Positions 5,842 through 57,312 are shown, counted from the first letter of the stretch. The stretch: 64,000 nucleotides of DNA from Akkermansia muciniphila (GCA_945861535.1 CAMAUZ010000029.1:7935-71934), one strand, 5' to 3'. Translations and numbers: made by a program. Notes: a model not told the origin generated them from the letters alone.

Positions 5842-8800
5842 ATGAACTCTCTCTGCCCCTTATTTGCTCGAAAGCTGAGGCAACCTTTCGCCACTTCCGT
5901 TTTCGCGTTCTTTGTGCTCTTTCGCGGCCCTTCCTCCTCCGCCGAAGCCCCCGACTTCGCCCGCCACATCGCCCCCCTCTTCCAGCAGCACTGCCTCGAC
6001 TGCCACGCCAAGCAGGACCCCGAAGGTGGCCTCGTCCTAGAGGACCACGCCTCGCTCCTCAAAGGCGGCGACTCCGGCCCCGCCATCCTCCCTGGCAAAA
6101 GCTCCGACAGCCGGCTCGTGAAATTTCTCGAAGGCCGCTCCGGCAAAGAAGGCAAAAACCAATTCATGCCCCCCGGCAAAAAGAAGCACCTCGACCCCGC
6201 CGAAATCGCCCTCATCAAATCGTGGATCGACGCCGGTGCCAAAGCCCCCGCCGCCCCCACCATTGCCTCACTCAACATCCCGAAAATCACGCCCAAGACC
6301 GCTCCCGCGCGCTCCATCACCGCCCTCGCTTTCTCCGCGCCCGCCAAGCTTCTCGCCGCCGGCCGCTACGGCGAAATCGATCTCCTCGACGCCACCACGC
6401 GCCAGATTCTCCGCACCCTCCCCGGCCATCGCGGCAACATCACCGCCCTCGCCTTCTCCGCCGACGGCACCCAACTCTTCGCCGCCGCCGGCGACCCCGG
6501 TCTCGTCGGCGAAGTCCGCCAATGGAACCTCACCGACCCCGCCCAGCCCAAACTCCTCCGTGCTTGGGACGCCCACCCCGACGCCCTCTACGCCCTCGCC
6601 CTCGCGCCCGACGGCCAGACCCTCGCCACCGGCAGCTACGACCAGCGCATCAAACTCTGGGACACCGCGACCGGCGCGGAACGCCGCACCCTCAAAGGCC
6701 ACAACGGCGCCGTCTTCGGCCTCGCCTTCCGCCCCGACGGACGCGTCCTCGCCAGCGCCAGCGCCGACCGCACCGTGAAACTCTGGGACCCCGCCACCGG
6801 CGCGCGCCTCGACACCCTCTCGCAACCCACCAAGGAACTCTTCACCATCGCCTTCGCCCCCGACGGCAAAACCCTCGCCGCCGGCGGTGCCGACAACCGC
6901 ATCCGCCTCTGGCAGGTCACCGACCGCGCCCTGGAAGGCAGCAACAAACTCCTCTACGCCCGCTTCGGCCACGAAGGCTCCGTGCTGAAACTCGCCTTCA
7001 CCCCCGACGGCAAAACCCTCGTCAGCACCGCCGCCGACAAATCCGTGAAACTCTGGACCACCGCCGAACTCACCGAACGCTCCGTGCTTGAACCCCAATC
7101 CGACTGGGCCTCCGCCCTCGTCCTCACCACCACCGGCCAGCTCATCATCGGCCGCCTCGACGGCACCCTCGGTTTCTACAACGCCACCACCGGCACCGCC
7201 CTCGCCCCCGCCGCCAAAAAATCCGCCCGCGGAGCGCCGATCTCCGATCCGGCGCTTCTCTCTGTAGCCGCCGACGTGAGGAGGCGGATGCTCCCCGCAA
7301 CCGAGCTGCCATCATTCAAAAAAATGCCGGAACCCTTCGCCTCGAAACCACCCGCCGGGTCGGAGACCGGCGCTCCTTCCGCGCGCGTACTCCGCCGTCT
7401 CCTCGCCGCCAATCCCACCGCCTTCTTCGCCCAAACCGCGAAGAAAAACGACAAGCCCGCCGCCGCCAAAGCCGCGCAAACGAAAGCCGTCGCCGACAAA
7501 AAAGCCGCCGCCGCCGGCAAGCCCGTCCTCACCCGCCTCGAACCTCCCGCCCTCCAGCGCGGCGCAACCTCCGAAATAAAACTCTTCGGCAAAAACCTCG
7601 CCGAACTCACCGGCCTCAAATTCTCGAACCCCAAACTCCTCGCCGAAATCCTCCCCGCCGATCCCGCCAAACCCGACGAAGCCCGCGTCAAAATCACCGC
7701 CGACGCCTCGCTCCCCCGCGCCCCCATCGAAGTCAGCGCCGTCACCGCCGCCGGCGAGAGCGAGAAACTCAAACTCACCCTCGACGACCTCCCCCAAATC
7801 GCCGCGCCCCTCGCGCCCAAACCCGGCGCACCCGTCCCGCTCGCCTCGCTGCCCGTCGGCATCTGGGGTGTCCTCAAAGAAGCCGGCGCGCGCTCCGAAT
7901 TCGTCTTCGCCGCCCGCGCCGGACAAACCCTCGTCTTCGATCTCGCAGCCCGCCGCATCGCCTCCAAAGCCGTCACCCCCGCGCTGCAATTGTTCGACGA
8001 TCGCGGCGTCCTCGTCGCCAGCAATTACGGCATGGAAAACAACACCGACCCGCTCCTCGCCTTCCACGTTCCGCGCGACGCCCGCTACACCATCCGCGTC
8101 AGCGAGGTCACGCTCGAAGGCTCCACCGATCACACCTACCACCTCACCCTCGGCGCGCTCCCCTACGTCACCGGCTTCTTCCCGATCAGCGCCGGCACAA
8201 ACAAGGAAATCGAAGTCACCCTCGCCGGCTACAATCTCCCCGCGCCCACCGTCCGCGTCACCACCACCGCGCCCGGCAACGCCAAGCTTCCCCTCGCCCC
8301 CACGATCCGAACGCGCGGCACGCCCGAACTCCTCGTCACCGACGCCACCGAACTCATCGAAACCGAACCCAACGACACGTCCGCCCAAGCCCAGTTCCTC
8401 CCGATTCCCAGCTCCGTCAACGGCCGCCTCTTCTCCTCGCGCGACGCCGCCCGAACCGCCAACGCCACCGCCGCCCCCGACGCCGACCTCTTCGCCTTCG
8501 AGGCCAAACGCGGCCAGCAGCTCGTCCTCGAAACCCTCGCCGCCCGCGCCGGTTCGCTCGCCGACACCAAGCTCGAAATCCTTTTCCCCAACGGCGAACC
8601 CGTGCCGCGCCTGCGCTTCCAGGCTGTGCGCGATTCCTGGATTAATTTCCGCCGCCAGGACGCCAACGCCGTCGGCGTGCGCATCGCCAACTGGGAGGAA
8701 ATGGACCTCAGCCAATACGTGTGGTTCAACGGCGACATCCAGCGCGTCGTGCAAATGCCGCGCGGCCCCGACGCCGACATGATCTTCGCCAACAACAACG

Positions 8801-9831
8801 GCAAACGCCGCGCCTACTTCGACACCACCGCCACCGCCCACGCCCTCGACGACACCTGCTACGTCGTCGAGCCGCGCCCGCTCGACGCCAAGCTCCTCCC
8901 CAACGGCCTCCCCGTTTTCACGCTCCACTACGCCAACGACGACGACGGCGACCGCGTCCTCGGCGCCGATTCCAAGCTCCACTTCACCGCGCCCGCCGAT
9001 GGCCGCTACCTCGTCCGCGTCACCGACACCCGCGGCACCGGCGGCGAGCGGTACACCTACCGCCTCACGATCCGCCCCGCCCAGCCTGATTTCCAAATCA
9101 CCCTGCAAGGCGCTAACCCCACCGTCGCCGCCGGTGCGGGCGCGAGCTTCGGCTTCCGCGCCGACCGCCTCGATGGCTTCGCCGACACCATCCGCATCAA
9201 CATCGCCAACCTCCCCGCCGGCTACTCCGCCGCCACGCCCATCACCATCCAGCCCGACCGGCTGCTCGCCGAGACCACACTCTTCGCCGCGCCCGACGCG
9301 AAGCCCGCCGACGCCGCGGCGTGGGCCAAAGTAAAAATCACCGCCACCGCCAGCATCGCCGGCCAGACCGTCACCCACGACCTGATGAACCTCGGCACCG
9401 TCAAACTCGGCCCGCCCGCCAACGTGCAAATCGTCCTCGAACCCGGCGGCGACTCGACCCTGAAAACCGCGCCGAACCCCGCGCCCGAACGCCCGCTCGA
9501 AATCACCATCACCCCCGGCGAAACCGTCGCCGCCTGGATACGCACCATCCGGCACGGCAACACCAACCTCGTGAACCTTGACATCAGCGGCCTCCCCTTC
9601 GGCATCATCGTGGACAACATCGGCCTCAACGGCGTGCAAGTCCGCGCCGGCGAAACCGTGCGCGACATCTACCTCACCGCCGCCCGCTGGGTCCCCGAGC
9701 AAGACCGCCCCTGCTTCGCCGTCACCCAATCCGCCCGCAACGACGCCCCCAGCACCCCCGGCACCCAAACCTCCTTCCCCGTCCTCCTCAAAGTCCGCAA
9801 AGCCACGACCTCAGCGGTGAGTCAGAAGTAG
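5842..9831 (+). CDS. Giant secreted protein: PSCyt1 (CxxCH) domain, WD40 beta-propeller, Ig-like and pre-peptidase C-terminal (PPC)-like domains
   Basis: 'CLDCHAKQDPEGGLVLE...IKSWIDAGA' (PSCyt1). About seven WD40 repeats, e.g. 'GHRGNITALAFSADG' and 'GHNGAVFGLAFRPDG'. 'ETEPNDTSAQAQ...DADLFAFEAKRGQ' (PPC-like). The start lies 1 nt after the previous stop. Confidence 0.85.
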   Translation: MNSLCPLFARKLRQPFATSVFAFFVLFRGPSSSAEAPDFARHIAPLFQQHCLDCHAKQDPEGGLVLEDHASLLKGGDSGPAILPGKSSDSRLVKFLEGRSGKEGKNQFMPPGKKKHLDPAEIALIKSWIDAGAKAPAAPTIASLNIPKITPKTAPARSITALAFSAPAKLLAAGRYGEIDLLDATTRQILRTLPGHRGNITALAFSADGTQLFAAAGDPGLVGEVRQWNLTDPAQPKLLRAWDAHPDALYALALAPDGQTLATGSYDQRIKLWDTATGAERRTLKGHNGAVFGLAFRPDGRVLASASADRTVKLWDPATGARLDTLSQPTKELFTIAFAPDGKTLAAGGADNRIRLWQVTDRALEGSNKLLYARFGHEGSVLKLAFTPDGKTLVSTAADKSVKLWTTAELTERSVLEPQSDWASALVLTTTGQLIIGRLDGTLGFYNATTGTALAPAAKKSARGAPISDPALLSVAADVRRRMLPATELPSFKKMPEPFASKPPAGSETGAPSARVLRRLLAANPTAFFAQTAKKNDKPAAAKAAQTKAVADKKAAAAGKPVLTRLEPPALQRGATSEIKLFGKNLAELTGLKFSNPKLLAEILPADPAKPDEARVKITADASLPRAPIEVSAVTAAGESEKLKLTLDDLPQIAAPLAPKPGAPVPLASLPVGIWGVLKEAGARSEFVFAARAGQTLVFDLAARRIASKAVTPALQLFDDRGVLVASNYGMENNTDPLLAFHVPRDARYTIRVSEVTLEGSTDHTYHLTLGALPYVTGFFPISAGTNKEIEVTLAGYNLPAPTVRVTTTAPGNAKLPLAPTIRTRGTPELLVTDATELIETEPNDTSAQAQFLPIPSSVNGRLFSSRDAARTANATAAPDADLFAFEAKRGQQLVLETLAARAGSLADTKLEILFPNGEPVPRLRFQAVRDSWINFRRQDANAVGVRIANWEEMDLSQYVWFNGDIQRVVQMPRGPDADMIFANNNGKRRAYFDTTATAHALDDTCYVVEPRPLDAKLLPNGLPVFTLHYANDDDGDRVLGADSKLHFTAPADGRYLVRVTDTRGTGGERYTYRLTIRPAQPDFQITLQGANPTVAAGAGASFGFRADRLDGFADTIRINIANLPAGYSAATPITIQPDRLLAETTLFAAPDAKPADAAAWAKVKITATASIAGQTVTHDLMNLGTVKLGPPANVQIVLEPGGDSTLKTAPNPAPERPLEITITPGETVAAWIRTIRHGNTNLVNLDISGLPFGIIVDNIGLNGVQVRAGETVRDIYLTAARWVPEQDRPCFAVTQSARNDAPSTPGTQTSFPVLLKVRKATTSAVSQK
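7264..7289 (+). repeat. GTAG-hairpin mini-REP copy located inside the giant CDS
   Basis: 'GTAGCCGCCGACGTGAGGAGGCGGAT' = GTAG, stem CCGCC, loop GACGTGAGGA, stem GGCGG. The same element occurs in intergenic DNA at 14618 and 57287. Confidence 0.8.
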
Positions 9832-9962
9832 AAACCCGAGCGCGGGCGGCCCGGCTGCAAGACTTTTGGCAAAGGAATGGGGGAATGGATTTGAGTCCTC
9901 GCGGCTATCTCAACTGCTCCCATTCCTTTGCCCCAAATTCCTTTGCCAAGAATCCCCTGCCC

Positions 9963-9988
9963 GTGGCCGCCGAGGTGAGGAGGCGGAA
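9963..9988 (+). repeat. GTAG-hairpin mini-REP, variant (GTGG)
   Basis: 'GTGGCCGCCGAGGTGAGGAGGCGGAA', intergenic, downstream of the giant gene. Confidence 0.65.
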
Positions 9989-10032
9989 CCAATGGCGGAC
10001 TCGGAAGGAGAACGAAATCTGCGGAGGACGGA

Positions 10033-10224
10033 TTATCCCGCCGTGCCCAGCTCGCGTTCGAGCATGGCAACGAAAACGTGTTTCCAGCGCGCCTTCTGCC
10101 GCGCGACGGACTCGGTGGAATCGAGCCGCTTCTCCAAGAACAGTCCCGACTGCGGCTCGCTGAAACGCAGGATGCGCCCGCCATCGGCGAGCTTGAGCAG
10201 GAGCAGTTCGACATCGCGTTTCAT
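10033..10224 (-). CDS. Hypothetical small protein (63 aa), no recognisable domain
   Basis: ATG start 9 nt after the stop of the upstream minus-strand ORF. The composition looks protein-like. The mirror plus-strand ORF (10078..10653) is E/Q/G-rich, as antisense ORFs usually are. Confidence 0.35.
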   Translation of the reverse strand: MKRDVELLLLKLADGGRILRFSEPQSGLFLEKRLDSTESVARQKARWKHVFVAMLERELGTAG

Positions 10225-10233
10225 GGGCGCAGT

Positions 10234-10695
10234 TTAGGCGGGGAATCCGAAATCTGCCACGAGCAGGTTCAGGGTTCGGGGGGAGGCGAGACCCAGGCGT
10301 TGGTGGGCGGCCTGGGCGGCTTGCTCGAAGTGCCCCTCGTTGAGTTCGAGCACGGCATCGGGCGGACGCTCGGCGGCGACCGTCGCCGCTTCCAGCACCT
10401 CGTGATACAGGGAAACGAACAACTCGCGTTCGTCCAGGTCGGCGCGCAGATAGATGTGAAAGTGGTGGCCGTGAATCAAGGTCTGGGCGGTGGCCGCCCG
10501 TTCGATTGGGTCAAGGAGCGGCTGGGCCGTCAGCCGGACTTCGACCAGCAAATAGCCGCCGCGCAGGGCAAGATTCTGAAACGGCGAGAGATCAAGCACG
10601 GCCTGATTGTGGGTGGCACCCGGAAGCGGCTTCAACCGGAAAGCGGCCGATGAAATCGTTACGCAAGTCGCCGATGGGAGGACAAAAGCCAGCAA
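10234..10695 (-). CDS. Hypothetical protein; faint ImmA/IrrE-like layout with HEVLE in place of HExxH; start uncertain (no ATG in the ORF)
   Basis: 'HIYLRADLDERELFVSLYHEVLEAAT' parallels the '...IYIN....E.RFT.AHELGH' segment of M78 peptidases but lacks the second His. The only candidate starts are TTG or GTG. Confidence 0.35.
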   Translation of the reverse strand: MLAFVLPSATCVTISSAAFRLKPLPGATHNQAVLDLSPFQNLALRGGYLLVEVRLTAQPLLDPIERAATAQTLIHGHHFHIYLRADLDERELFVSLYHEVLEAATVAAERPPDAVLELNEGHFEQAAQAAHQRLGLASPRTLNLLVADFGFPA

Positions 10696-10746
10696 TCGCC
10701 GCCAACCTTTTGGCTTGGGAAATCAGCCGGGTGGCCACTCTCTCTC

Positions 10747-10772
10747 GTAACTAACGACGTGAGGAGGCGGAT
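10747..10772 (+). repeat. GTAG-hairpin mini-REP, degenerate copy
   Basis: 'GTAACTAACGACGTGAGGAGGCGGAT'. Loop and 3' stem are conserved; the 5' stem is decayed. Confidence 0.6.
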
Positions 10773-10777
10773 CGCGT

Positions 10778-10856
10778 GGTAGGGCGCGTCTGTCCCCAGC
10801 GCGCCGGTTGCGTGTCCGTACGGCCCGCGGCGCGCTGCGGACAGACGCGCCCTACC
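10778..10856. repeat. Long GTAG...CTAC palindrome
   Basis: 'GGTAGGGCGCGTCTGTCCCCAGCGCGCC' pairs with 'GGCGCGCTGCGGACAGACGCGCCCTACC' across a 23-nt spacer. Confidence 0.8.
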
Positions 10857-11045
10857 CACCCCAATTCGTCGCCGCCGCCGTGCGGAGGCGGAGCTCCGCC
10901 AAACATTGGCGATACGAATTATGTCGGCGAGGCTGCGCCCCGCTGGTATCGGTCATCCAGCAATGAAGCGTGAGAGCAATCAACCCGTTTGCCTATTTCT
11001 CCTCCTCAGCGTGGAAGAGAACAACACTATGTGGGGCTTGATCTC

Positions 11046-11369
11046 ATGAAGCCGTTTGAGCTGCCGGTGTTCCGCGAGGCGGTGGCGTCCGGGAGAATCG
11101 AGTGGCGCAAACATGTGCTGCAAAAGCTCGCCGAACGCGGCATTCCGCAGCAGGCCGTCCGCGAGGTGCTGCTCGCGGGCGAACGGATTCGGGACTATGC
11201 CGATGACAAACCTTTTCCGAGCGCGCTGTTTTTAGGGTATGTGTCGGGCCGTCCGCTGCATGTGGTGGCAGCGTGCGACGAAGGCAGCGCGCGGGCGTTC
11301 ATCATCACGGCCTATGAACCATCGCTGGAAATTTTTGAAGCCGACCATCGAACCCGACGAAAATCATGA
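11046..11369 (+). CDS. DUF4258 domain toxin (type II TA toxin candidate)
   Basis: 'IEWRKHVLQKLAERGIPQQAVREVLLAGERI...PLHVVAA...AFIITAYEP' fits the DUF4258 pattern. 4-bp ATGA overlap with the downstream antitoxin gene. ATG at 11046 preferred over the TTG of the ORF track. Confidence 0.8.
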   Translation: MKPFELPVFREAVASGRIEWRKHVLQKLAERGIPQQAVREVLLAGERIRDYADDKPFPSALFLGYVSGRPLHVVAACDEGSARAFIITAYEPSLEIFEADHRTRRKS

Positions 11370-11599
11370 ACACGCAAAATGACCGATGCCCGCTCTGCGG
11401 CGGAAACCGAGCGGCGGGGGTGACCACGTTCACCGCGGATTTGGGGAGCGGGGTGGTCGTGGTGCGCAGGGTGAGCGCCACGGTGTGCTCGCAGTGTGGG
11501 GAAGAATGGATCGAGGACGCTGTCGCCCGCCGCCTGGAACAGGTGGTGATCGACGCGCGCCGGCAGCAGCGTGAGGTGGATGTCACGGCCTTCGCGTAG
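11366..11599 (+). CDS. YgiT-type zinc-finger protein, MqsA-family antitoxin candidate
   Basis: 'CPLCGG...TTFTADLG.GVVVVRRVSATVCSQCGEEW' carries two CxxC pairs typical of the YgiT/MqsA N-terminal zinc finger. Confidence 0.8.
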   Translation: MNTQNDRCPLCGGNRAAGVTTFTADLGSGVVVVRRVSATVCSQCGEEWIEDAVARRLEQVVIDARRQQREVDVTAFA

Positions 11600-11690
11600 T
11601 TTTTTTCGCGCCCGGCATGGGCCTTCGGGCGAGAGCGGACGCGCCGCGAGGTTTGGGCGCTAAAGCGGCGTGAACGCCGCGCGACGCCCG

Positions 11691-11715
11691 CTCGCCTCCT
11701 CACGTCGTCGGCTAC
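11691..11715 (-). repeat. GTAG-hairpin mini-REP (minus orientation, imperfect stem)
   Basis: The reverse complement reads 'GTAGCCGACGACGTGAGGAGGCGAG'. Confidence 0.6.
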
Positions 11716-11718
11716 CAG

Positions 11719-11773
11719 CTTGCTCCTTGTCCCTTCCCTTGAGCTTTATCCTTTGAGCTTTGAGCTTCGCCCC
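11719..11773 (-). repeat. Stop-codon-proximal purine-rich element (AAGCTCAAAG repeats)
   Basis: The plus strand reads 'CTTGTCCCTTCCCTTGAGCTTTATCCTTTGAGCTTTGAGCTT'. It lies 3 nt beyond the stop of the minus-strand gene 11776..14424. Confidence 0.75.
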
Positions 11774-11775
11774 GC

Positions 11776-14424
11776 TCAGTGCTGAAACAAAAACTCGTTG
11801 AGATTCAGCACCGACCACGCCACATCCGACAGCGCCGCCCCGCGATCTGCGCGCCCCGCGACATACCGCGTCGCCGTCGCCAATTCCGAGTCCGTCGGCG
11901 GACGGCACAGCGCCGCGCGATACAGGTCCGCGATGATCTCCCCATCCTTGCGCCCCTCCGCGATCTGCTTCCGCCACTGGTTGTTCGCCGACTGCAATTT
12001 CCCGTGCAACAGCGGCCCGTTGAAGAGCTGCAGCGCCTGCCCGAGATGCGTCGTCGTCGGACGCTCGCACGCGCACGCGGTCTGGCGCGGCGGCTGGCCG
12101 AACGTGCTGAGAAACGCGTTGTTCGCCTCGGGCGCGGGAAGCTGCGTCGCGAGCGTGCCGGGCGGGAGATTCGCGAACGTTTCTGGCAACCCGCTCACCT
12201 GACACACCGCGTCGAGCAACTGCTCCGCCGTGAGCAACCGCTGCCGATAGCGCGAAAAAAACTGCCGGTCGTCGTGATTAAAACGGTTCGGCGTCGAGCT
12301 GGTCTGATACGTGCGGCTGTTGAGAATCGTGCGCAGCAGTTGCTTGCGGTCGAAACGCTGCGTCGCGAACTCCTTCGCCAGCGCGTCGAGCAACTCGACA
12401 TTCGAGGGCGGATTGGAATCCCGGAAATCATCAATCGGCTCGACGATCCCCTGACCCATCACCTGCGCCCAGATGCGGTTCGCCTCGGCGCGCGCGAAGA
12501 ACGCATTGGTCGGCTGCGTGAGCCACTCGACGAACGCCGCGCGCCGGTCGGCCTCGGGCGGCAGGTTCATCTCCCCGCGATTCGGCGCCCACGGTTTCAT
12601 CTCCTTGCCCGTGCGCGGCTGCATCACTTCGCCCCGCCGCGCGACCCAGATGATTTGTTCGCCCGCGCGATTGCCCGGCTGCCGCTGGAGCCGCTCGAAC
12701 ACCGCGTTCATCCCGTAATAATTATCCTGCGTCCACCGCTCGAAGGGATGGTTGTGACAGCGCGCGCACTGGATGCGAACGCCGAGAAAAATCTGCGCCG
12801 TCGTCTCCGTCGCGTCGCTGCCCGTGGCGGCGGTGCGATAATAATTCGCCGCGGGATTCTCCAGCGTGCTCCCGTCCGCGAGCAGCAGTTCGCGCACGAA
12901 CTGGTCATACGGCTGGTTCACCTCGAACGCGCGCACGAGCCAGCGATGGAACTTATGCACGCCGCCCGCGCCCAGCGCCGTCGGATTCAGCCGCAGCCAG
13001 TCGCCCCATTTCAATGCCCAGAACCGCGGAAACTCCGGCCGCGCGAGCAGCTCATCAATCAGCCGCGCCCGCTTGTCCTTGGCCACGTCACCCAGAAAGC
13101 GCCGCGTCTCCGCCAGCGTCGGCAGCAGCCCGATCACATCGAGATAAACCCGCCGCACAAACTCCTCGTCGGTCGCCGGCTCCGACGGCAGGAACTGCAA
13201 CTGCCGCAGCTTCGCCTGCACGAGCGTGTCGATGAAATTGCTCACCGGCGGCGCCTGCCACACGAATCCCTCGATGTCCCGCACGAACGTAAAGCCCACC
13301 GTCTCAACATCCTCCAGAAACCGCACGCTCACCGCGACCTGCCCCCGTCCCTGACCCACGACCAATCCCTCCGGCGTCACCGTGGCAATCGCCTCGTCCG
13401 AACTCGCATACATCGCCAGCCGCGTGATGTCCCGCTCGGTGCCGTCGGCGAAGCGCGCCATCACCTGCAATTGCTGCGTGTGCGCCGGCCATTTCAGCAA
13501 CCGGCTCGCGCCCGGATGCACCACGATCCCCGTGCAGGCCGGAGCCTCCGCGCGATCAAACGCGCAGCCCTGATTGATCCAATCCACCAGCAGCCCATGC
13601 GCCTCCTCGCCCGCCCGCAGCCGCTGTCCGCCGCGATGCGCCACCTGCGCGAGCGGTTTGCGCAAGAGCAGGCTCGCCTCCGGTTCCAGCAGGTTGATGC
13701 GCCGGCTGAAGACCTCGCGCACCAGCGCATTCTTGTCCGCCTCCGGATCGAACGCGAACAGCGACAACGCAAATCCCCCCTTGCCACTCGGCGTCCCGTG
13801 ACACCCGCCCGAATTGCAACCCTGCTTGCTCAATGCCGCCAGCACGCCGTATTTGAACCCGACCGGCGCAGCCGCTCCCTGCGCCGCCACCTCCACCGGC
13901 ACCCGCGTCTCGCGCCCGCCCACGCTCACCCGCAGTTCCGTCCGCCCATCGCCCACCGGCGACACCCAGCCCGCCTCGACCCGGGCGACCTTCGCATCCG
14001 CGCTCTCGATGCGCGCCGCCCGCGTGAGATCCTGCATCGCCCCGTCCGCATAAAATCCCGTCACCACCACCTGCGCCCGCGCCCGCGCCCCCGCGAGCTT
14101 CACCGCCGCCGGATGCACCACCACCCGTGTCACCGCGCCGACCAGCACCGGCTGCAACTCCGCCGCCCTGCCCTCCCGCTCCACCTTCTCCGCCGCGGCC
14201 GCACTCGCGACGAACAACATCCCTAGCAGCAGCAACCCCAAACTCCGAAACCAAACGGGGAGCGCACGCGGCCCGCGTGCCGGTTTGGGTGGCCCGCCCA
14301 AACCGTCGTTCCCCGGTCTGACCAGCCCTCCGCCGGAAAAAGTGAGTGGAACGAAGTTTTCGGCGGGCCGCCGAAAACTGCACGCCAGCGGCGTGCGCTC
14401 CCCGGACCGTCGGGCGTTGTCCAT
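11776..14424 (-). CDS. DUF1549/DUF1553 (PSCyt2/PSD1) domain protein with Big_2-like N-terminal domain
   Basis: 'CNSGGCHGTPSGKGGF', 'CARCHNHPFERWTQDNYY', and a DUF1553-type C-terminus ending 'EFLFQH', as the paralogue at 2456 ends 'EFLFNH'. The start is set at 'MDNARRSG'; upstream parts of the ORF translate repeats. The start remains uncertain. Confidence 0.85.
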   Translation of the reverse strand: MDNARRSGERTPLACSFRRPAENFVPLTFSGGGLVRPGNDGLGGPPKPARGPRALPVWFRSLGLLLLGMLFVASAAAAEKVEREGRAAELQPVLVGAVTRVVVHPAAVKLAGARARAQVVVTGFYADGAMQDLTRAARIESADAKVARVEAGWVSPVGDGRTELRVSVGGRETRVPVEVAAQGAAAPVGFKYGVLAALSKQGCNSGGCHGTPSGKGGFALSLFAFDPEADKNALVREVFSRRINLLEPEASLLLRKPLAQVAHRGGQRLRAGEEAHGLLVDWINQGCAFDRAEAPACTGIVVHPGASRLLKWPAHTQQLQVMARFADGTERDITRLAMYASSDEAIATVTPEGLVVGQGRGQVAVSVRFLEDVETVGFTFVRDIEGFVWQAPPVSNFIDTLVQAKLRQLQFLPSEPATDEEFVRRVYLDVIGLLPTLAETRRFLGDVAKDKRARLIDELLARPEFPRFWALKWGDWLRLNPTALGAGGVHKFHRWLVRAFEVNQPYDQFVRELLLADGSTLENPAANYYRTAATGSDATETTAQIFLGVRIQCARCHNHPFERWTQDNYYGMNAVFERLQRQPGNRAGEQIIWVARRGEVMQPRTGKEMKPWAPNRGEMNLPPEADRRAAFVEWLTQPTNAFFARAEANRIWAQVMGQGIVEPIDDFRDSNPPSNVELLDALAKEFATQRFDRKQLLRTILNSRTYQTSSTPNRFNHDDRQFFSRYRQRLLTAEQLLDAVCQVSGLPETFANLPPGTLATQLPAPEANNAFLSTFGQPPRQTACACERPTTTHLGQALQLFNGPLLHGKLQSANNQWRKQIAEGRKDGEIIADLYRAALCRPPTDSELATATRYVAGRADRGAALSDVAWSVLNLNEFLFQH

Positions 14425-14617
14425 CTTCGGCTTCGGAGTTCGGCTCAACACCGCTCCGGCAAGGCGCGTCGCCCTGCGCCCCGCGGTCGCTCGTACCCAC
14501 GGCACGGCATCGGAAGGACAAGGAGAAATCGCGGACAGCAAAAGCACAAGTGGTGGGTTTTGGTTAATGACCGCGGACTGACTCAGAGTGGAAAACCCCG
14601 ATTCATAAATCCTCCCC

Positions 14618-46843: not shown

Positions 46844-46903
46844 GGCAGGGAAATTATGAACAAGAGAATTAGGGAATTTGGCAGGGGAATTTGGGGCAGG
46901 GGA

Positions 46904-48517: not shown

Positions 48518-48612
48518 AAGAGGGGCGAGGGCCGGAGAGACTCGGCGCTTGCCGCCAACATAGTTGCGGGCGGGCAGGCACGCAGCGAGGTCGCAGCGCC
48601 ATTTATATTGCT

Positions 48613-49473: not shown

Positions 49474-49530
49474 GTCAGCCGCAGGTTCTAATCCAAGACG
49501 CCGCGCCGGGCGATGCGATAAAGTTCACCC

Positions 49531-50634
49531 GTGAAAATCACCCGCATCTTTGCACATCGCGTCGAACTCCCGCTGCACGAGACCACCTACAAATGGTCCG
49601 GCGGCAAATCCGTCACCGTCTTTGACAGCACCGTCGTCGGTGTCGAGACCGACACCGGCCTCGTCGGCTACGGCGAGGTCTGTCCGCTCGGACCATTTTA
49701 TCTCCCCGCCTACGCCGACGGCGTCCGCGCCGGCCTGCGCGAACTCGGACCGCACCTGATCGGCGAAGATCCGCACCAGCTCACCAAACTCAACCGCACG
49801 ATGGACGCCGCGCTGAAGGGCCACCCCTACGTGAAGAGCGGCATCGACATCGCCTGCTGGGACCTCCTCGGCCACGCGACCGGCCTGCCCGTCTGCGAAC
49901 TGCTCGGCGGCCGTTATGGCGCGGACGTGCATCTCTACCGCGCCATCTCGCAGGAATCGCCCGAGCAGATGGCCGCGAAAGTCGCGGGCTATCGCGCCGA
50001 AGGCTACCGCCGCTTCCAGCTCAAGGTCGGCGGCAATCCTGACACGGACATCGCGCGGATCTTCGCCGTCGCCGCCCAGCTTCAGCCTGGCGACCGCCTC
50101 GTCGCCGACGCCAACACCGGCTGGGTCCAGCACGAAGCCGTGCGCGTCGCCAAGGCCGTGCGCGACGTGGACGTTTACATCGAGCAGCCCTGCCTGACCT
50201 ATGAGGAATGCCTCGCCGTCCGCCGCCAGATTCCGCATCCGTTCGTGCTCGACGAAAACATCGACGACCTCGGCATTCTCCTCCGCGCCAAGGCCGACCT
50301 CGCGATGGACGTGGTGAATCTGAAAATCAGCAAGCTCGGCGGCCTCACGAAAATCAAACAAGCCCGTGACCTCTGCGTGAGCATGGGCATCGGCATGACC
50401 CTCGAAGATTCCTGGGGCGGCGACATCGCCACCGCCGCCATCGCGCATCTCGCGCAGAGCACGCCCACCGAGTTCCTCTTCAGCACCACCGACTTCAACA
50501 GCTACGGCCCGGTGAGCATCGCCGACGGCGCGCCGCAACGCGTGAACGGCCGCATGGCCGCCAGCACCGCGCCCGGCCTCGGCATCATCCCGAAACTCGA
50601 CGTGCTCGGCAAACGCGTGGTCGTCGTGGAATGA
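49531..50634 (+). CDS. Enolase-superfamily enzyme (mandelate racemase/muconate lactonising enzyme family)
   Basis: 'FQLKVGG', 'ADANTGW', 'IEQP', 'LDENI', 'NLKISKLGG' (metal ligands and catalytic Lys positions). Divergent from the AraC gene. Confidence 0.8.
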
Positions 50635-50673
50635 AGCGCAGACAAAAAAATTGGGCGAGCACACGCACCTCGC

Positions 50674-50812
50674 ATGTGGGGCAGGCATCCCTGCCTGCCA
50701 GTTACGGGGCATCCCTGCCCCGTGTTCCTATTTGTTACACACCGCACACTTCTCGAAGAAACGGGCGGCAGGGATGCCGCCCGAACTGGCAGGCTAGAAG
50801 CCTGCCCCACGT
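50674..50812. repeat. Family-7 composite palindrome with four GC-rich sub-hairpins
   Basis: Sub-hairpins GGCAGGCATCCCTGCCTGCC, ACGGGGCATCCCTGCCCCGT, CGGGCGGCAGGGATGCCGCCCG and GGCAGGCTAGAAGCCTGCC. Confidence 0.85.
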
Positions 50813-50873
50813 TGCCAGCGCACCCGAAGGTAGGTACGCTCCCCCTCTCAACACGCATGACCTCACCCCGCCC

Positions 50874-53063
50874 ATGAAACTCCTCCTCACCACCCTCCTG
50901 CTCCTCACCTCCCTCGCAGCCACTCCTGTCTCCTCGGCCCCCGCGCCCAATGCCCAAGCCCCTTATCGCCGCATGGACTTCGGCCCCGTGCTCTTCTGCA
51001 CCTACCAGGTTGCGCCCGGAAACATTGCGCAGAAAGGCCTCGCCATCCGCCTCGACGACGGCCCCGGCGGCGTGAGCAAAGGCCGCGCCTGGCTGGTGTA
51101 CGACCACGACACCATGCGCGTCGCCGCCGCAACGACCGGCGATTTCGTCGATTGGAAAGGCATCGCCTACGACGGCAGCCACGGCACCCACACCGGCTTG
51201 ACCGGCGACCGCCATTTCATCACGCCCGACGCGCCGGGCTGGGCCTCGCCCGACGGAAAATGGGACGACGTGCGCATCGAGGGCCGTGACAAGCGGCGCT
51301 TTGGTCCCCTGCCCCGCACCTGGATACACTACGAGGGACTCTACCTCCATGGAGCCAAAGCCGTCATCGCCGCGACCATCGGCGGCACCCGCGTGCTCGA
51401 ATCTCCCGGCTGGATTGAAAACGGTACGACCCCCGTCTTCACCCGCACGCTGAATGTCGCCGCCGCGAAAAAACCGCTGTCGCTCCGCGTCGCGCCCGAC
51501 TCGATCAACGTCGCCCTCACCGGCGATGGTTCGCTCCGCAAAGACGCCGGCTTCTGGCTCGCCGAACTGCCCGGTGCCGCCAAGACGCGCCTGTTCATCT
51601 CCCGCGCCGAACCCTCGGCACTCGCAGTGCTCGCGAAATCCACCACCACATCAACCGACCTCGATCCGCTCACCCACGGCGGCCCGTCGCGCTGGACGCA
51701 GGAAGTCACCACCACCTCGGTGCCCGGCAACGCCGACGGCGCGTTCATTGCCGACACCTTCCCGCTGCCCCTCGACAACCCGTGGCAAAGCTGGCTGCGC
51801 CCCGGCGGCGTCGATTTCACCCCGGACGGCAAAGCCGCCATCGTCGCCATGTGGAACGGCGATGTCTGGCGCGTCGATGGCCTCATGGCCGCCGCGCCCG
51901 CCCCGCTGCGCTGGAAGCGCCTCGCGAGCGGTCTCTTCCAGCCGCTCGGCGTGAAATTCCGCGGCGACGAACTTTTCATCACCTGCCGTGACCAGCTCGT
52001 GCGCCTGCGCGACCTCAACGGCGACGGCGAGATCGACTACCTCGAAAGCTTCAACAGCGACCACCAAGTCACCGAACATTTCCACGAATTCGCGATGGGC
52101 CTCCAGCTCGATGCGGCGGGAAATTTCTATTACGCCAAGTCCGCCCGCCACGCGCTGACCGCGCTCGTGCCGCACCACGGCACGCTCCTGCGCGTGAGCG
52201 CCGACGGCCAGCGCACCGACATCCTCGCCAATGGCTTTCGCGCCGCGAACGGCGTGTGCCTGAACGACGACGGCAGCTTTTTTGTCACCGATCAGGAAGG
52301 TCATTGGACCCCGAAGAACCGCATCAACCGCGTGAAGCCCGGCGGTTTCTACGGCAACATTTTCGGCTACACCGCCGTGACCAACACCGCGGATTCCGCG
52401 ATGGAACAGCCGATGGTGTGGATCACCAACGCCAAGGACCGCAGCCCCGCCGAACTGCTCTGGGTGCCGAAAAGTGCGTGGGGTTCCCTCGGCGGTTCGC
52501 TCCTCAATCTCAGCTACGGCACCGGCCGCGCCTTCATCGTGCCGCACGAAGAAATCGCCGGCCAATTCCAAGGCGCGGTGTGCGAACTGCCCCTGCCCAA
52601 TTTCCCCACCGGCATCATGCGCGGACGCTTCGCCGCCGATGGGGCGCTCTACACCTGCGGCCTGTTTGGCTGGGCGGGCAATGCCACCGCGCCCGGCGGC
52701 TTCCATCGCATCCGCCGCGGCACGCCACCCGCGCACGTCCCGCTGACGATCCACGCCGCGAAAGGCGCGCTGTCCGTGACCTTCAGCGACCCGCTCACGC
52801 CCGCCAGTATCAAGCCCGACGCGTTCGCCATGAAAGTCTGGTTCCTCAAACGCAGCGCCAGCTATGGCTCCAAGCACCACGAAGAACACCCGCTCGAAAT
52901 CACCGGCGCGCGCCTCGGCCCCGACGCCCGCACCGTGATCCTCACCATCCCGGCCCTCGTCCCCACGCAGTGCTACGAACTGAAAGTCAGCCTCCCGCTC
53001 CCCGACGGCACCACCCTCACCCGCTCGCTGCACGGAACGATTCACCAGCTTGCGGAGAAATGA
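50874..53063 (+). CDS. Secreted beta-propeller protein (SGL/soluble glucose dehydrogenase-like 'membrane-bound dehydrogenase domain' type)
   Basis: Signal peptide 'MKLLLTTLLLLTSLAATPVSSA'. 'RDLNGDGEIDY', 'ANGFRAANGVCLNDDGSFFVTDQEG' and 'VKPGGFYG' are typical of this PVC family. No heme-binding CxxCH tail was seen. Confidence 0.65.
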   Translation: MKLLLTTLLLLTSLAATPVSSAPAPNAQAPYRRMDFGPVLFCTYQVAPGNIAQKGLAIRLDDGPGGVSKGRAWLVYDHDTMRVAAATTGDFVDWKGIAYDGSHGTHTGLTGDRHFITPDAPGWASPDGKWDDVRIEGRDKRRFGPLPRTWIHYEGLYLHGAKAVIAATIGGTRVLESPGWIENGTTPVFTRTLNVAAAKKPLSLRVAPDSINVALTGDGSLRKDAGFWLAELPGAAKTRLFISRAEPSALAVLAKSTTTSTDLDPLTHGGPSRWTQEVTTTSVPGNADGAFIADTFPLPLDNPWQSWLRPGGVDFTPDGKAAIVAMWNGDVWRVDGLMAAAPAPLRWKRLASGLFQPLGVKFRGDELFITCRDQLVRLRDLNGDGEIDYLESFNSDHQVTEHFHEFAMGLQLDAAGNFYYAKSARHALTALVPHHGTLLRVSADGQRTDILANGFRAANGVCLNDDGSFFVTDQEGHWTPKNRINRVKPGGFYGNIFGYTAVTNTADSAMEQPMVWITNAKDRSPAELLWVPKSAWGSLGGSLLNLSYGTGRAFIVPHEEIAGQFQGAVCELPLPNFPTGIMRGRFAADGALYTCGLFGWAGNATAPGGFHRIRRGTPPAHVPLTIHAAKGALSVTFSDPLTPASIKPDAFAMKVWFLKRSASYGSKHHEEHPLEITGARLGPDARTVILTIPALVPTQCYELKVSLPLPDGTTLTRSLHGTIHQLAEK

Positions 53064-53548
53064 TCCCCGCACCGGGGGGCGGCTCGTTCCCGCCAACCAG
53101 TCGGCGACAGAACTGTTGCCGCCCCCATTGGGTTTTGGGCGCCTGACGACCCCGCGGCGGATTCGGTGGTTCGGTTTTCGCGGCGGCGCGGATTCTCTCA
53201 CGGTCCGCCACCTCGGGCTGCCGTCCGCGAATACACCCATCGCAGCCACGCCGCGACCCTGGCGGATTCTGCGGCCGGGAGCCGCCCTGTTGGCTGTGCT
53301 AGACGGACACCAAACTCCAGTTCAGCGCGTTGGCCCCAATCCCGTCCCCACGCCGATTTGGAATTCGGCGCTCCGCAAAACGCGCCGCGACGGCCCTGCG
53401 CAAACCTCAATTAGCTCCCCTCAAGCCCCCAACCCGCGAGAAGCATTTCTAAGTCACAAGCGCCCCGCATTCCGCGCGATAAATACTTTTCCCGCTCCGC
53501 CCGAGACATTAGTTGACGCGATTGGCGCCGTGCCCTTCCATCGCCGCC

Positions 53549-54427
53549 ATGCAAATCGAGAGTTTGAAAGTCTTCTGCGACCTCACCGAAACCGAAAGCT
53601 TCACCAAGGCCGCCCACATCAACGGCGTCACCCAGTCCGCGGTGAGCCAGCAGATCAGCTCCCTTGAGCGGCACTTCAAGTCCATGCTCATCGAGCGGAG
53701 CAAGAAGAAGTTCCGCCTCACCCGCGAAGGCCAGGTGCTCTACGAATACTGCAAACAGATCATCCAGACCTTCGACGCCCTCCACAATCGCATCCAGGAA
53801 ATCAAGGACATCGTCTCCGGCACCATCCGCGTCGCCACCATTTACAGCATCGGCCTGCACGACCTGCCGCCCTACATCAAGCGCTTCCTCAAGGCCTATC
53901 CCACGGTCAATGTCCACGTCGAGTACCGCCGCTCCAACCAGGTCTATGAAGACGTCCTCGGCAACGTCGTGGACCTCGGGTTGGTCGCCTATCCCACCAA
54001 GGATCCGCGCCTGGAAATCCTCCCGCTCCGCAAGGACATGCTCGCGATGATCTGTCATCCCAATCATCCCCTGGCGAAAAACCGCACGGTGAAACTCAGC
54101 TCGATCGCGGGTCAAAAATTCATCGGCTTCGAACCCGACATCCCCACCCGCAAAGCCATCGACAAAATCCTCAAGGACCGCGCCATCGCCGTGCAGCACG
54201 TCATGGAGTTCGACAATGTCGAAACCGTGAAACGCGCCGTCGAGATCGACGCCGGCATCTCCATCGTCCCCCAGGGAACCGTGGTGCAGGAAGTCGCCAA
54301 ACAAACGCTGATCCAGTTGCAGATCGAGGACGCCGATTTCTTCCGCCCCCTCGCCGCGATCTACAAAAAGAACAAGGTCCTCTCGCCGGCGATGAAACAG
54401 TTCCTGTCGATCGTGAAGGAGAGCTGA
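53549..54427 (+). CDS. LysR-family transcriptional regulator
   Basis: 'MQIESLKVFCDLTETESFTKAAHINGVTQSAVSQQISSLE' wHTH plus a LysR substrate-binding domain. Confidence 0.9.
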   Translation: MQIESLKVFCDLTETESFTKAAHINGVTQSAVSQQISSLERHFKSMLIERSKKKFRLTREGQVLYEYCKQIIQTFDALHNRIQEIKDIVSGTIRVATIYSIGLHDLPPYIKRFLKAYPTVNVHVEYRRSNQVYEDVLGNVVDLGLVAYPTKDPRLEILPLRKDMLAMICHPNHPLAKNRTVKLSSIAGQKFIGFEPDIPTRKAIDKILKDRAIAVQHVMEFDNVETVKRAVEIDAGISIVPQGTVVQEVAKQTLIQLQIEDADFFRPLAAIYKKNKVLSPAMKQFLSIVKES

Positions 54428-54557
54428 GCGCAGGCGGGTTTGCCCCGGAGTGCGCCCGTCCCCGGGCGCAGCGACGTCCAAAGTCATGGGCGCGGTGAAT
54501 CGGTCTCGGCAGCGCCCGAGAATCCCAGCCCACGGTCCCGCCCACGATGCCCTCCCC

Positions 54558-54654
54558 GATCCCGGAGGGATCGAAGAAATTAGCCGGTGGTGAAGCGCAG
54601 CGGAACCACCGGACAAGCCCTCCCCAGAACCGAGATTGCGTCCCGGAGGGACGC
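54558..54654. repeat. Family-2 left end (TTAG-hairpin arm plus GCGTCCCGGAGGGACGC hairpin)
   Basis: 'GAAATTAGCCGGTGGTGAAGCGCAGCGGAACCACCGG' followed by 'GCGTCCCGGAGGGACGC'. Confidence 0.8.
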
Positions 54655-54925
54655 GAGAGGCGCGGAAATGGAGATGGTGGTCAGTCATCCCGGCGCTGCG
54701 GTGGGGCGCGGGCACCGTCCCACGATGACACGCCCGGCGGGGACATAGCTCGCTTCTTTGAATCGGTCTCGCGTTTCCCCATCCCGTTGCCAACCGCCGT
54801 GATCATCCCAACCTCCGCCTTGGAGTTCTCCCTTTCGGGACCAAAGCAACCGGATGCCGAAAATGCGCGGCGCAACGGCTTGAAAAACGGATTGCTCATC
54901 GTCGCCGCGCAAGGATGCTTTCGTC

Positions 54926-55372
54926 ATGCCCTCAACACATCTCTCGCTTCATTACCATCTGGTTTTCAGCACCAAGGATCGTGAGCCGTGGTTCCGTCCA
55001 GATTTGCGGCCGCGAATTCACCAATACCTTGGCGGGGTGATTCGCAGTCTGGATGGCATCCCGCACGGAGTCGGCGGCATGGCCGATCATGTGCATGTCT
55101 TCGCAGGGTTGCGGGCCACTCATTGTCTGGCCGATGTGATGCGCGAACTGAAGAGCGACTCATCGCAGTGGGTGCATAAGGAACTCAAGCTGGGTGGCTT
55201 TGCGTGGCAGGAGGGGTATGGAGGATTCACGGTCAGCGCTTCAAATCTGGAGTCGGTGCGGAACTACGTCCTGAATCAGGAACGGCACCATCGGACCAAG
55301 ACGTTTCAGGAAGAGTATGTCGGGATGTTGAAACGGGGATTGGTGGAATACAAAGAAGCGCATCTGTGGTGA
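54926..55372 (+). CDS. IS200/IS605-family Y1 (HUH) transposase, RAYT-like (copy 2)
   Basis: 148 aa. 'LSLHYHLVFSTKDRE', HUH 'HVHVF', 'WQEGYGGFTVS', and Tyr-x3-Gln 'YVLNQ'. Clearly diverged from copy 1, so these are paralogues rather than copies of one IS. Confidence 0.85.
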   Translation: MPSTHLSLHYHLVFSTKDREPWFRPDLRPRIHQYLGGVIRSLDGIPHGVGGMADHVHVFAGLRATHCLADVMRELKSDSSQWVHKELKLGGFAWQEGYGGFTVSASNLESVRNYVLNQERHHRTKTFQEEYVGMLKRGLVEYKEAHLW

Positions 55373-55400
55373 GACGCCTTTCGCGGGTGCCACGCTTCTC

Positions 55401-55494
55401 TCGCCCCTCCGGGGCGAAGCATTGTTTTTGCCGTTGATCCGGTGGTTCCGCTGCGCTTCACCACCGGCTAATTTCTTTCGTGCCTCCGGCACGA
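55401..55494. repeat. Family-2 right end (CGCCCCTCCGGGGCG hairpin plus inverted TTAG-hairpin arm)
   Basis: 'CCGGTGGTTCCGCTGCGCTTCACCACCGGCTAATTTC'. Confidence 0.8.
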
Positions 55495-55504
55495 CGTCGG
55501 CCTC

Positions 55505-57202
55505 TCACCTCCCCACTTCCACCAACTCATACCGGGGCCACAGCACCACGGAGAAATGGAACATGATGGCCGGCAAATACGGCGCGCTCGAGTGGTACAC
55601 CGCGTCGCCCGTGTTGCCGTTGAGCACCGCCGCGAGCAGCGGCAGACGCAACCCCTTCAAATCGTAGCTCCCATCCGCGCGACGACGCTCCGCCGGTGCG
55701 CCGAGGCCGGCCCACGGCAGGCGGATTTCGCCCGTGTAGCCGGTGTCGCGGTCGGTCGGGTCGTTCACCGTCGAGGGCCGGCCATCGGCGCGGGGCTTGA
55801 GCTGCACGGCGCGGGCGACGGTGAAGGCACCGTCGTCATCCACGTAGCGTTCACGATGGAAGGTCACGTCCTTGTAGGAAGGCTTGGGGATTTTCGCCAG
55901 CGCCTCGGCGGAGGGCAGCTCGATCCCGAGATTGTTCAGGTGATTGGCCGCGTTGTGATGGATTTCCCAAAACGTCCGCACGCTGCCGAAGGAGATGAAG
56001 AACTCGACGAGATCCAACTTTTTCTCCGGCAGATACTCCTCGCTCATCGGCCGGCGATTGGCCGGCGGCCCGCTCTCGCGCCCGGAGGCGATGGCCACGA
56101 GGTTCGTGTCGTTCACCTCGTAACCGATGTAGAGATACCGCTCGTCCCACGCGAGACGCGCCGTCACCGGGGGCGGCTGCGTGCGCTGACCGTGTGCGGC
56201 GTAAGGAAACGCGACCACGACCGGAACCGCCCGTTTCCAGCACTCCTCATCCAGTTTCCCATCCATCGCCGGCGCGACCGACGTGCGGTAAATCGGCGCG
56301 GGCGGGACGGTCTCGGTCCCGGTCGCCGCCGCGCGGTCGCGCGCGAACTGCGGTGACTCAAAGTACCCGGCCGGCGGCGTCCACACCGTGCGGAAGCCGA
56401 CGTGATAATACGTTTCATCCGGTTTGAAACCGAAGCGCTTGGCCGCGTAGAAACCCACCCAGCCGTGATACCACGAGCCGCCGCGCAGACTGACGACCTT
56501 TCCGTAGTCGCGCATCTTCTCAGCCTGCGGGTTGCCCGGATACGGCTCCAGCCAGTCGGCGGTCCACTCGTATTGGTTGCCGATAAGATCAAGCACGCCG
56601 TAGGGCGAACGGCCTTTGGGATAACTGCCCGCCTGCGTGTAGAGCGGCGGCTGCTTGCCCTTCGCGCCAAGGTGCCCGTGGTCGGGCGTGGGCGCGTCGT
56701 TGCCCCACGGATAAAGCCGACCGTCGGTGCCACGCGCGGCCTTCTCCCACTGCGCATCGGTGGGCAGCGCCTTGCCGGCCCAGCGGGCGTAGGTCTTCGC
56801 TTCGTCCCAGGTGATCTCGCCGGCCGGCAGCGACTGCGACTCGGGCCGGTCGAAGTGCCGCGTCGTTTCTTTGAACTTGGTTTTGTGTCCCGTGGCGGTG
56901 ACGAACTGCTTCCAACGCGCGACCGTCGCCTCGCATTCGTCGATGAAGTAGCCGGGCAGTTCCACCGTGCGGCGCGGATAACAATCCCACGCCCACAACG
57001 TCGCGGCGTCCTTCGCACCCAAGTGCTGCGCCACGACATTCGCCTCGGCCTCATCGAGGCCCATGATGAACTTGCCCGCGGGGACATACACCATCCGCGC
57101 GCCGTCGCCGGGATGAACGATGAGCGTACCCGCCGCCGGCTCGGCGGCTCGACTGGAAACGCCCGACCATGCCCAACAGGCGAACGCGACAAGGAGAAAC
57201 AC
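55505..57202 (-). CDS. Formylglycine-generating-enzyme (SUMF1/FGE-sulfatase) domain protein with C-terminal CBM9/DOMON-like domain
   Basis: 'VSLRGGSWYHGW', 'YRVNRGGS'-type FGE signature region, and the C-terminal 'WDERYLYIGYEV'. Start provisional (GTG at 57202); the ORF-track N-terminal extension crosses a mini-REP. Confidence 0.75.
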   Translation of the reverse strand: MFLLVAFACWAWSGVSSRAAEPAAGTLIVHPGDGARMVYVPAGKFIMGLDEAEANVVAQHLGAKDAATLWAWDCYPRRTVELPGYFIDECEATVARWKQFVTATGHKTKFKETTRHFDRPESQSLPAGEITWDEAKTYARWAGKALPTDAQWEKAARGTDGRLYPWGNDAPTPDHGHLGAKGKQPPLYTQAGSYPKGRSPYGVLDLIGNQYEWTADWLEPYPGNPQAEKMRDYGKVVSLRGGSWYHGWVGFYAAKRFGFKPDETYYHVGFRTVWTPPAGYFESPQFARDRAAATGTETVPPAPIYRTSVAPAMDGKLDEECWKRAVPVVVAFPYAAHGQRTQPPPVTARLAWDERYLYIGYEVNDTNLVAIASGRESGPPANRRPMSEEYLPEKKLDLVEFFISFGSVRTFWEIHHNAANHLNNLGIELPSAEALAKIPKPSYKDVTFHRERYVDDDGAFTVARAVQLKPRADGRPSTVNDPTDRDTGYTGEIRLPWAGLGAPAERRRADGSYDLKGLRLPLLAAVLNGNTGDAVYHSSAPYLPAIMFHFSVVLWPRYELVEVGR

Positions 57203-57286
57203 CCGGTGGAAAATGCCACGTCCTGTCGTGGCGGCGGCGCAACGGGCCGGCTTGAAACGTCCCCGAGAAATGTCCGCCGCAGACCC

Positions 57287-57312
57287 GTAGCCGCCGACGT
57301 GAGGAGGCGGAT
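57287..57312 (+). repeat. GTAG-hairpin mini-REP
   Basis: 'GTAGCCGCCGACGTGAGGAGGCGGAT'. Confidence 0.8.

Follow-up and report, generated by a model that had tools for sequence, protein, structure and literature searches.

Systems that pair a repetitive extragenic palindrome (REP), or a REP doublet forming a hairpin (REPIN), with a REP-associated tyrosine transposase (RAYT) are well established (PMC3479197, PMC3116915, PMC8266576). Di Nocera, De Gregorio & Rocco 2013 described GTAG-tagged REPs and their head-to-head and tail-to-tail (HH/TT) dimers, defined families GTAG-17 to GTAG-20 in the verrucomicrobium Opitutus terrae and found intragenic REP copies to be unusually frequent in this species (PMC3733652). 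Here we analyzed a stretch of 64,000 nucleotides from Akkermansia muciniphila (GCA_945861535.1 CAMAUZ010000029.1:7935-71934), referred to below as the window, in which an earlier note made from the sequence had pointed out a dispersed hairpin of 26 nucleotides (nt) with a 5' GTAG. Our results make it very probable that this element is a 24-26 nt GTAG-tagged REP, widespread in Verrucomicrobiota and spread by a RAYT related to the Escherichia coli transposase TnpA-REP.

The element shares several features with the REPs of Di Nocera et al. (PMC3733652). In both cases a short stem-loop carries an unpaired GTAG, sometimes GTGG, at one end, sub-families use alternative complementary stems, copies pair in opposite orientation into dimers with spacers of 20-100 bp, and many copies lie in frame within genes of Verrucomicrobia, including tRNA synthetase genes. 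In contrast to those REPs, it is the apex and not the stem that is conserved here, and across a phylum. The encoded peptides also differ: the O. terrae families give VGPALAAG, GTGVPPV, RGQRPRL and VAG..., whereas the present element gives VAADVRRR or LLTSAAT. Its DNA and peptides were found neither in the supplements of PMC3733652 nor in the other literature searched, which returned unrelated primers only. This particular hairpin family thus appears to be new as far as the papers searched go, while its kind has already been described for Verrucomicrobia by Di Nocera 2013.

Eight GTAG hairpins are present in the window where the earlier note had placed them; its plus-strand coordinates hold and its minus-strand ones were shifted by one base. 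Exact matches to the 26-mer GTAGCCGCCGACGTGAGGAGGCGGAT start at 7264 and 57287, and copies with one and three mismatches are found at 14618 and 9963, respectively, compared with 0.00 matches expected from dinucleotide-preserving shuffles of the window. A stem-free pattern, GTAG-N5-GACGTRAGGA, adds the copies at 10747(+), 11715(-) and 43996(-), for which the shuffles expect 0.01. We also trained a covariance model, R1, on 146 distinct copies of other genomes and ran it on the full window with filters off. It returned exactly the same eight copies, at 23.2-41.5 bits, and then noise, the next-best match scoring 16 bits. The tag reads GTAG in six of the eight, GTGG in one and GTAA in one, and the stems of the copies at 10747, 11715(-) and 42969(-) are damaged.

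To place these copies in a wider family, we scanned a one-genome-per-species collection with the pattern GTAGNNNNCGACGTRAGGAG and obtained at least 119 loci. Among the matches listed, 66 of 80 titles name Verrucomicrobiota lineages, with Akkermansia, Opitutaceae, Limisphaerales and Verrucomicrobiia among the lineages named. Three Bacillaceae matches represent one chance match in a conserved gene and were left out, and the 116 loci kept hold, together with the window, 237 copies. The commonest stem classes among 155 copies from other genomes are CAGCC/GGCTC (41), CCGCC/GGCGG (27), GAGAC/GTCTC (19) and GAGCC/GGCTC (8), with GAAAC/GTTTC, CCCCC/GGGGG and CCACC/GGTGG being rarer. The replacement of CCGCC/GGCGG by GAGAC/GTCTC at 43996(-), already remarked upon in the earlier note, is real and involves the third commonest class; by these counts both window stems are common classes of the phylum-wide family.

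The hairpin has three parts, namely the 5' GTAG tag, a 5-bp lower stem that varies by sub-family (CCGCC, CAGCC, GAGAC, GAGCC and others), and a conserved apex composed of tandem G.A/A.G, one C-G or G-C pair, and a GTRA (GNRA-like) tetraloop. We measured covariation on the 146 distinct copies with the structure ....(((((..(....)..))))).. and used shuffles and sliding of the register as controls. Paired cells amount to 87.8%, compared with 65.5 +/- 1.1% in shuffles, and the covariation score is 0.484 versus 0.142. Double-change cells number 165, compared with 60 +/- 5 in shuffles, although the copies share descent, so that cell counts overstate the independent events. The sturdier indications are that sliding the register lowers the paired cells to 27-46%, and that 17 distinct pair types beyond the first are seen. 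Five of the six pairs have both-sided changes. The compensatory stem changes proposed from the window alone are thus borne out.

The sixth pair lies within what had been taken for a free loop of 10 nt. Positions 12 and 17 covary, being C-G in 101 copies, G-C in 37 and unpaired in 6, and they close a GTGA, GTAA or GTCA tetraloop above the tandem G.A/A.G, which refutes the free loop. In many doublets the partner half has GAGGTAACGAG in place of the GACGTGAGGAG of the searched half, C...G becoming G...C around the same tetraloops. Copies with the G-C apex fell outside the selection of the search pattern, and when counted without a tag constraint 36 of 41 of them carry GTAG. Likewise, the statement that the loop always contains GGAGG or AGGA fails at the copy at 42944-42969(-), which reads GAGGTGACGAGG. 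The Shine-Dalgarno resemblance is a by-product of the apex, and the G-C variant reads ACGAGG and lacks it. Under RNA parameters the GTAG strand folds into exactly the predicted structure, with -12.1 kcal/mol, 95% of the ensemble and z = -3.1; the complementary strand forms the outer stem only, with -7.8 kcal/mol.

The partner transposase was found by inspecting the open reading frames (ORFs) between copies 0.4-2 kb apart; clustering all ORFs of the 119 loci for proteins enriched beside the element had given common families only. At locus L019, the ORF 935-1561 encodes 208 residues with the motifs PDHIHLVW and YVLMNPV and matches NF047646 (REP-associated tyrosine transposase) with E = 7e-12. 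It is enclosed by a doublet that begins at 819(+) and by copies at 1516(-) and 1591(-). L062 holds a partial homolog at its contig edge, which adjoins three copies, on one side only. At E <= 1e-5, this RAYT family numbers at least 1,370 members, many of which JGI labels 'REP element-mobilizing transposase RayT'. In all seven homolog loci that we retrieved, R1 matches scoring 26-43 bits flank the gene on either side, no further than about 110 nt away and with GTAG pointing outward. Taken together, hairpins abut the RAYT gene in nine of nine loci (L019, L062, L200, L203, L204, L207, L208, L209 and L210), and in all eight with both flanks readable they do so on both sides with GTAG outward; at L207, arrays of four and two doublets surround the gene. 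Across 17 aligned members, the motifs D-H-x-H-L (as PDHxHL) and Y-x3-N-P do not vary. The earlier proposal that the hairpin is a REP tied to a RAYT therefore stands in its essence, with a GTAG-tagged REP adjoined by a RAYT in every such locus, but the enzyme is not the pair encoded in the window that it had named.

Compared with all PDB sequences, the RAYT profile matched only 4ER8, the E. coli TnpA-REP, with E = 6e-4 and with the HUH and Tyr motifs aligned. The likeness to the E. coli system (Messing et al. 2012, PMC3479197; Corneloup et al. 2021, PMC8266576) extends to a GTAG 5' of an imperfect hairpin, to a RAYT gene bracketed by its own REPs, and to an alignment with 4ER8 over the whole catalytic domain. 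On the other hand, this similarity is remote, and the hairpin is much shorter than the E. coli REP, its 5-bp stem bearing a tandem G.A and tetraloop apex in place of the bulged stem of E. coli. The REPIN-RAYT systems of Pseudomonas (Bertels & Rainey 2011, PMC3116915) are similar in that an inverted REP pair with a short spacer is the dominant unit, a dedicated RAYT gene exists and most units appear, by a crude gene call, to be intergenic. Unlike in Pseudomonas, about one fifth of the units are intragenic here, half of the doublets are heterodimers by apex, and the window holds singletons only.

In other genomes most copies form inverted doublets of the type GTAG-hairpin, spacer, hairpin'-CTAC. 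We counted 71 doublets in which GTAG points outward; their spacers have a median length of 23 nt, and in 35 of the 71 the lower stems differ between the halves. By apex, half of the doublets in loci L001-L119 combine C-G with G-C (35 heterodimers versus 28 homodimers), an arrangement that keeps each local hairpin and puts two mismatches into the long palindrome. The tiny size, the phylum-conserved apex, the swapped closing pair and the mixed-apex doublets make the element somewhat unusual. To see where the units lie, we called genes crudely by ORF length and GC contrast at third codon positions, which recovers the obvious genes of the window, and excluded units near locus edges. By this crude call, 29 of 140 units lie strictly within long ORFs, 26 are ambiguous and 85 are outside called genes; 79 of the latter stand between two called genes (45 tandem, 23 convergent and 11 divergent), and six have no called gene on one side. 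Of the window copies, one falls within a gene and another is ambiguous. Intragenic copies are found in both orientations and several frames, and single copies are not biased in their orientation towards genes, with 13 same versus 9 opposite in tandem pairs and 5 versus 6 within genes.

Only one of the six frames of the element contains a stop codon, the TAG of the tag, and in-frame copies inside genes are therefore tolerated. A case that we verified independently is an isoleucyl-tRNA synthetase (IleRS) at locus L050, which carries a 23-residue in-frame insert, VAAEVTRRTHSAEADRLLTSAAT, corresponding to exactly one doublet. The protein aligns to PDB enzymes as residues 1-436 and 459-590, and the insert is missing from PDB IleRS structures. 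The same gene (ORF 1207-4164, minus strand) shows a further insert in frame, GSAAVPAASSETDTQKHAGETPALP, which is about 25 residues long and lies at residues 591-616 (nt 2313-2394). A palindromic doublet other than that of the first insert, GGGAGCGCTGCCGTC...GACGCCAGCGCTCCC, encodes it, and it too is missing from PDB IleRS sequences. In adding a short peptide in frame to genes, essential ones included, the element resembles the Rickettsia palindromic elements (RPEs). RPEs are longer, about 100-150 bp, and are not GTAG-tagged hairpins of the verrucomicrobial kind, and to our knowledge no RAYT is bracketed by them.

The eight copies of the window, numbered along the plus strand, are found in diverse settings. 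Copy 1 (7264-7289, plus; 40 bits) is intact, with the CCGCC/GGCGG stem, a C-G apex and GTGA, and is read in frame as VAADVRRRM within an interdomain linker of ORF 5842-9831, which encodes PSCyt1 and WD40 domains. Homologs of this protein gave six weak matches, the best of which, P0121, is 28% identical and has the same PSCyt1-WD40 architecture. Copy 2 (9963-9988, plus; 32.1 bits), with the tag GTGG and a G.G apex mismatch, follows 132 nt past the stop codon of the same ORF, between convergent genes. Copy 3 (10747-10772, plus; 23.2 bits) is decayed, having the tag GTAA and a lost 5' stem half (CTAAC), and a GTAGGGCGCG palindrome begins 7 nt downstream of it. Copy 4 (11690-11715, minus; 30.7 bits), whose stem is partly decayed (CCGAC/GGCGA), stands between convergent genes, 61 nt past the stop codon of the PSCyt2/PSD1 gene (11776-14787, minus). 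Upstream of that gene and antisense to both flanking minus-strand genes is copy 5 (14618-14643, plus; 27.3 bits), whose stem is intact and whose apex is A.G (GAAGTGAGGA). Copy 6 (42944-42969, minus; 31.6 bits) combines the swapped G-C apex (GAGGTGACGAG) with a weakened stem, CTGCC/GGCGT, and is located between the genes for a rhombotarget lipoprotein and a rhomboid protein, within the maximal 5' extension of the rhomboid ORF. Copy 7 (43971-43996, minus; 41.5 bits), intact with the alternative GAGAC/GTCTC stem and a GTAA loop, lies 23 nt past the stop codon of a RecN/SMC-like gene (44019-45764, minus) in the same orientation. Copy 8 (57287-57312, plus; 40 bits) is intact and identical to copy 1, and is found between two minus-strand genes, upstream of the one with an FGE-sulfatase domain and antisense to both. 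A possible decayed ninth copy, GTCGCCGCCGCCGTGCGGAGGCGGAG, at 10868-10893(+) scores 14.5 bits (E = 0.13), which alone is not significant; relative to the consensus, it carries three A-to-C changes and one T-to-G change.

A mechanism suggested by these data would start with the GTAG strand folding into the hairpin when the DNA is single-stranded, a fold indicated by covariation and the RNA energy model. By homology with the E. coli system, a dedicated HUH/Y1 RAYT would then bind the hairpin apex and the GTAG foot, and would cut and rejoin the strand. Such cutting and rejoining could copy single hairpins, and above all inverted REPIN-like doublets, to new sites, and copies would survive in frame inside genes, five of six frames being open. 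Besides the shared descent of the copies, several observations weigh against this reading. With DNA parameters only the outer stem forms, with weak z-scores, and the tandem-G.A/GNRA fold comes from RNA parameters alone, so that the case for the apex fold is built on covariation plus the RNA energy model. The L019 ORF scores 45 bits on NF047646, where the curated cut-off is 80, and has no Pfam match. In the 64-kb window, tblastn found no RAYT homolog, and by R1 positions all eight copies are dispersed singletons, although doublets dominate in other genomes. P0121 is the sole homolog spanning copy 1, and its 28% identity is too low to tell from the linker whether copy 1 is an insertion. Finally, the near-identical contigs L200 and L201 showed no clean presence/absence polymorphism against L202, the region not being alignable. 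Since no RAYT lies nearby, all copies are singletons and three stems are decayed, the eight copies are most likely passive products or relics of the RAYT process. The apex stays constant across Verrucomicrobiota while the lower stem drifts, and it is also conceivable, if rather unlikely, that the host has co-opted the hairpin, for instance as a site bound by a conserved nucleic-acid-binding protein or as a recurrent peptide module (VAADVRRR...LLTSAAT) tolerated in essential enzymes, with the RAYT-REP pair being beneficial and vertically inherited instead of parasitic.

The strand asymmetry of the fold could also be read as the mark of an RNA motif, whose GGAGG/GNRA apex would bind ribosomes or an RNA-binding protein, by mimicking or titrating Shine-Dalgarno sites, as the earlier note had suggested. 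The good fold of the GTAG strand but not of its complement under RNA parameters, the conservation of the apex over a phylum, and the three window copies in sense orientation shortly past stop codons would all suit this idea. However, the same asymmetry is equally expected of the substrate of a single-strand HUH enzyme, and titration by the loop is unsupported by the orientation of single copies, which are antisense to genes as often as sense, copies 5 and 8 of the window being antisense to both neighbours. About a quarter of the distinct copies have the G-C apex and hence ACGAGG instead of GGAGG, and most copies elsewhere are inverted doublets, many within coding sequence. Searches of Rfam 15 matched none of the copies, whether at the gathering threshold over the full window or at E <= 1 over 9800-11800, a 2-kb stretch that includes three copies. 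We consider such an RNA motif very improbable. A primary role as host terminator or 3' mRNA-stabilizing hairpin, with repetition being secondary, is very improbable as well. E. coli REPs do stabilize upstream mRNA, copies 2, 4 and 7 fall 23-132 nt past stop codons, and intergenic units elsewhere are tandem or convergent more often than divergent. Yet reading the flanks directly revealed no run of T behind any copy, none of the 39 terminator-like sites in 7000-15000 and 42000-58000 coincides with a copy, copies are also found upstream of, antisense to and inside genes, and the adjacency to RAYT genes would be left unexplained.

The window itself encodes two Y1 HUH enzymes, at 1438-1884 and 54926-55372 (both plus), and since they share the 64-kb window with the eight copies, they were candidates for the enzyme that acts on the hairpin; they are the two proteins that the earlier note had called RAYTs and implied to be partners. 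Both match the IS200/IS605 model NF033573, and both genes are bounded by a different repeat, a composite of about 100 nt ending ...CCGGGGGC..GCCCCCGGCTAA, which belongs to the TTAGCCGG family and flanks them at 1290-1400, 1900-2010 and 55390-55500. In 80 metagenome loci with homologs of these TnpA proteins (255 kb), neither model nor regular expression found a single GTAG hairpin, whereas 48 of the 80 carry CCGGCTAA. The closest hairpin in the window is more than 1.9 kb from either gene, and tblastn with the IS200-type TnpA on the 119 element loci gave two matches, both non-adjacent. We rejected the pair as partners on the grounds of the other repeat at both genes and the absence of the hairpin from all 80 homolog loci, and regard the hairpin being their substrate as highly improbable. 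At the far end, a chance or coding k-mer of GC-rich genes has a negligible probability. Copy 1 does lie in frame in a long ORF, and five of six frames are open. But the two search patterns gave 4-6 observed matches against 0.00-0.01 expected, most copies appear intergenic by the crude gene call and the intragenic ones are spread over both orientations and several frames, the stems covary, and the three chance matches in Bacillaceae genes were recognized and excluded.

The RAYT-associated REP thus preferred is a real element of modest interest. For annotation, it accounts for recurrent odd or spurious peptide motifs such as VAADVRRR, LLTSAAT and EPPHVGCY in verrucomicrobial predicted proteins, as well as for short in-frame inserts in real ones. 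For REP biology, it offers a compact 24-nt candidate substrate in which a variable stem is separable from an invariant structured apex, together with a RAYT family of more than 1,000 members, features that make it a convenient system for studying RAYT recognition and REP/RAYT co-evolution. It also calls for caution, as Y1 transposase genes near a GTAG hairpin are not thereby its partners.

The window contains further repeats. The generalization that most of its repeat families are NTAG-tagged is upheld for TTAGCCGG (11 copies versus 1.6 expected), GTAGGGCGCG (4 versus 0.36) and TTTAGCGCC (3 versus 0.42), and is weak for ATAGCCGG (3 versus 1.2) and GTAGCGCAG (2 versus 0.3). TTAGCCGG often occurs as inverted pairs about 200 nt apart (780/980, 1164/1364, 2202/2402 and 58614/58832), and together with the IS200-type TnpA it seems to make up another transposase-repeat system of this genome, separate from that of the hairpin. 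The palindrome 7 nt past copy 3, at 10779-10858, is near-perfect over 80 nt (GTAGGGCGCGTCTGTCCCC...GGACAGACGCGCCCTAC); its arm recurs at 1216(-), at 40269(-) and at locus L003 of another verrucomicrobial metagenome-assembled genome, and it attracts chance Rfam matches to microRNA precursors at E < 0.2. The sole Rfam match in the window at the gathering threshold is the Acido-Lenti-1 small RNA at 14752-14796(-), with 37.3 bits against a cut-off of 37. It overlies a TTTAGCGCC-tagged palindromic repeat that is also present at 14961(-) and 11664(-), and it is possible that the Acido-Lenti-1 'sRNA' family is itself a REP-like repeat with an NTAG tag.

Between copies 2, 3 and 4 are small gene pairs, at 10033-10695(-) and 10989-11599(+), that look toxin-antitoxin-like by eye, a zinc-ribbon ORF with CxxC...CxxC coming after a DUF4258-like one; the 153-residue ORF at 10234-10695(-) has no Pfam or NCBIfam match. 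The block 28000-38000 holds no copy of the element and stands out by its same-strand genes and its lower G+C content (0.575-0.60, compared with 0.64-0.68 elsewhere), and could represent a gene cluster of the polysaccharide type or one gained by horizontal transfer.

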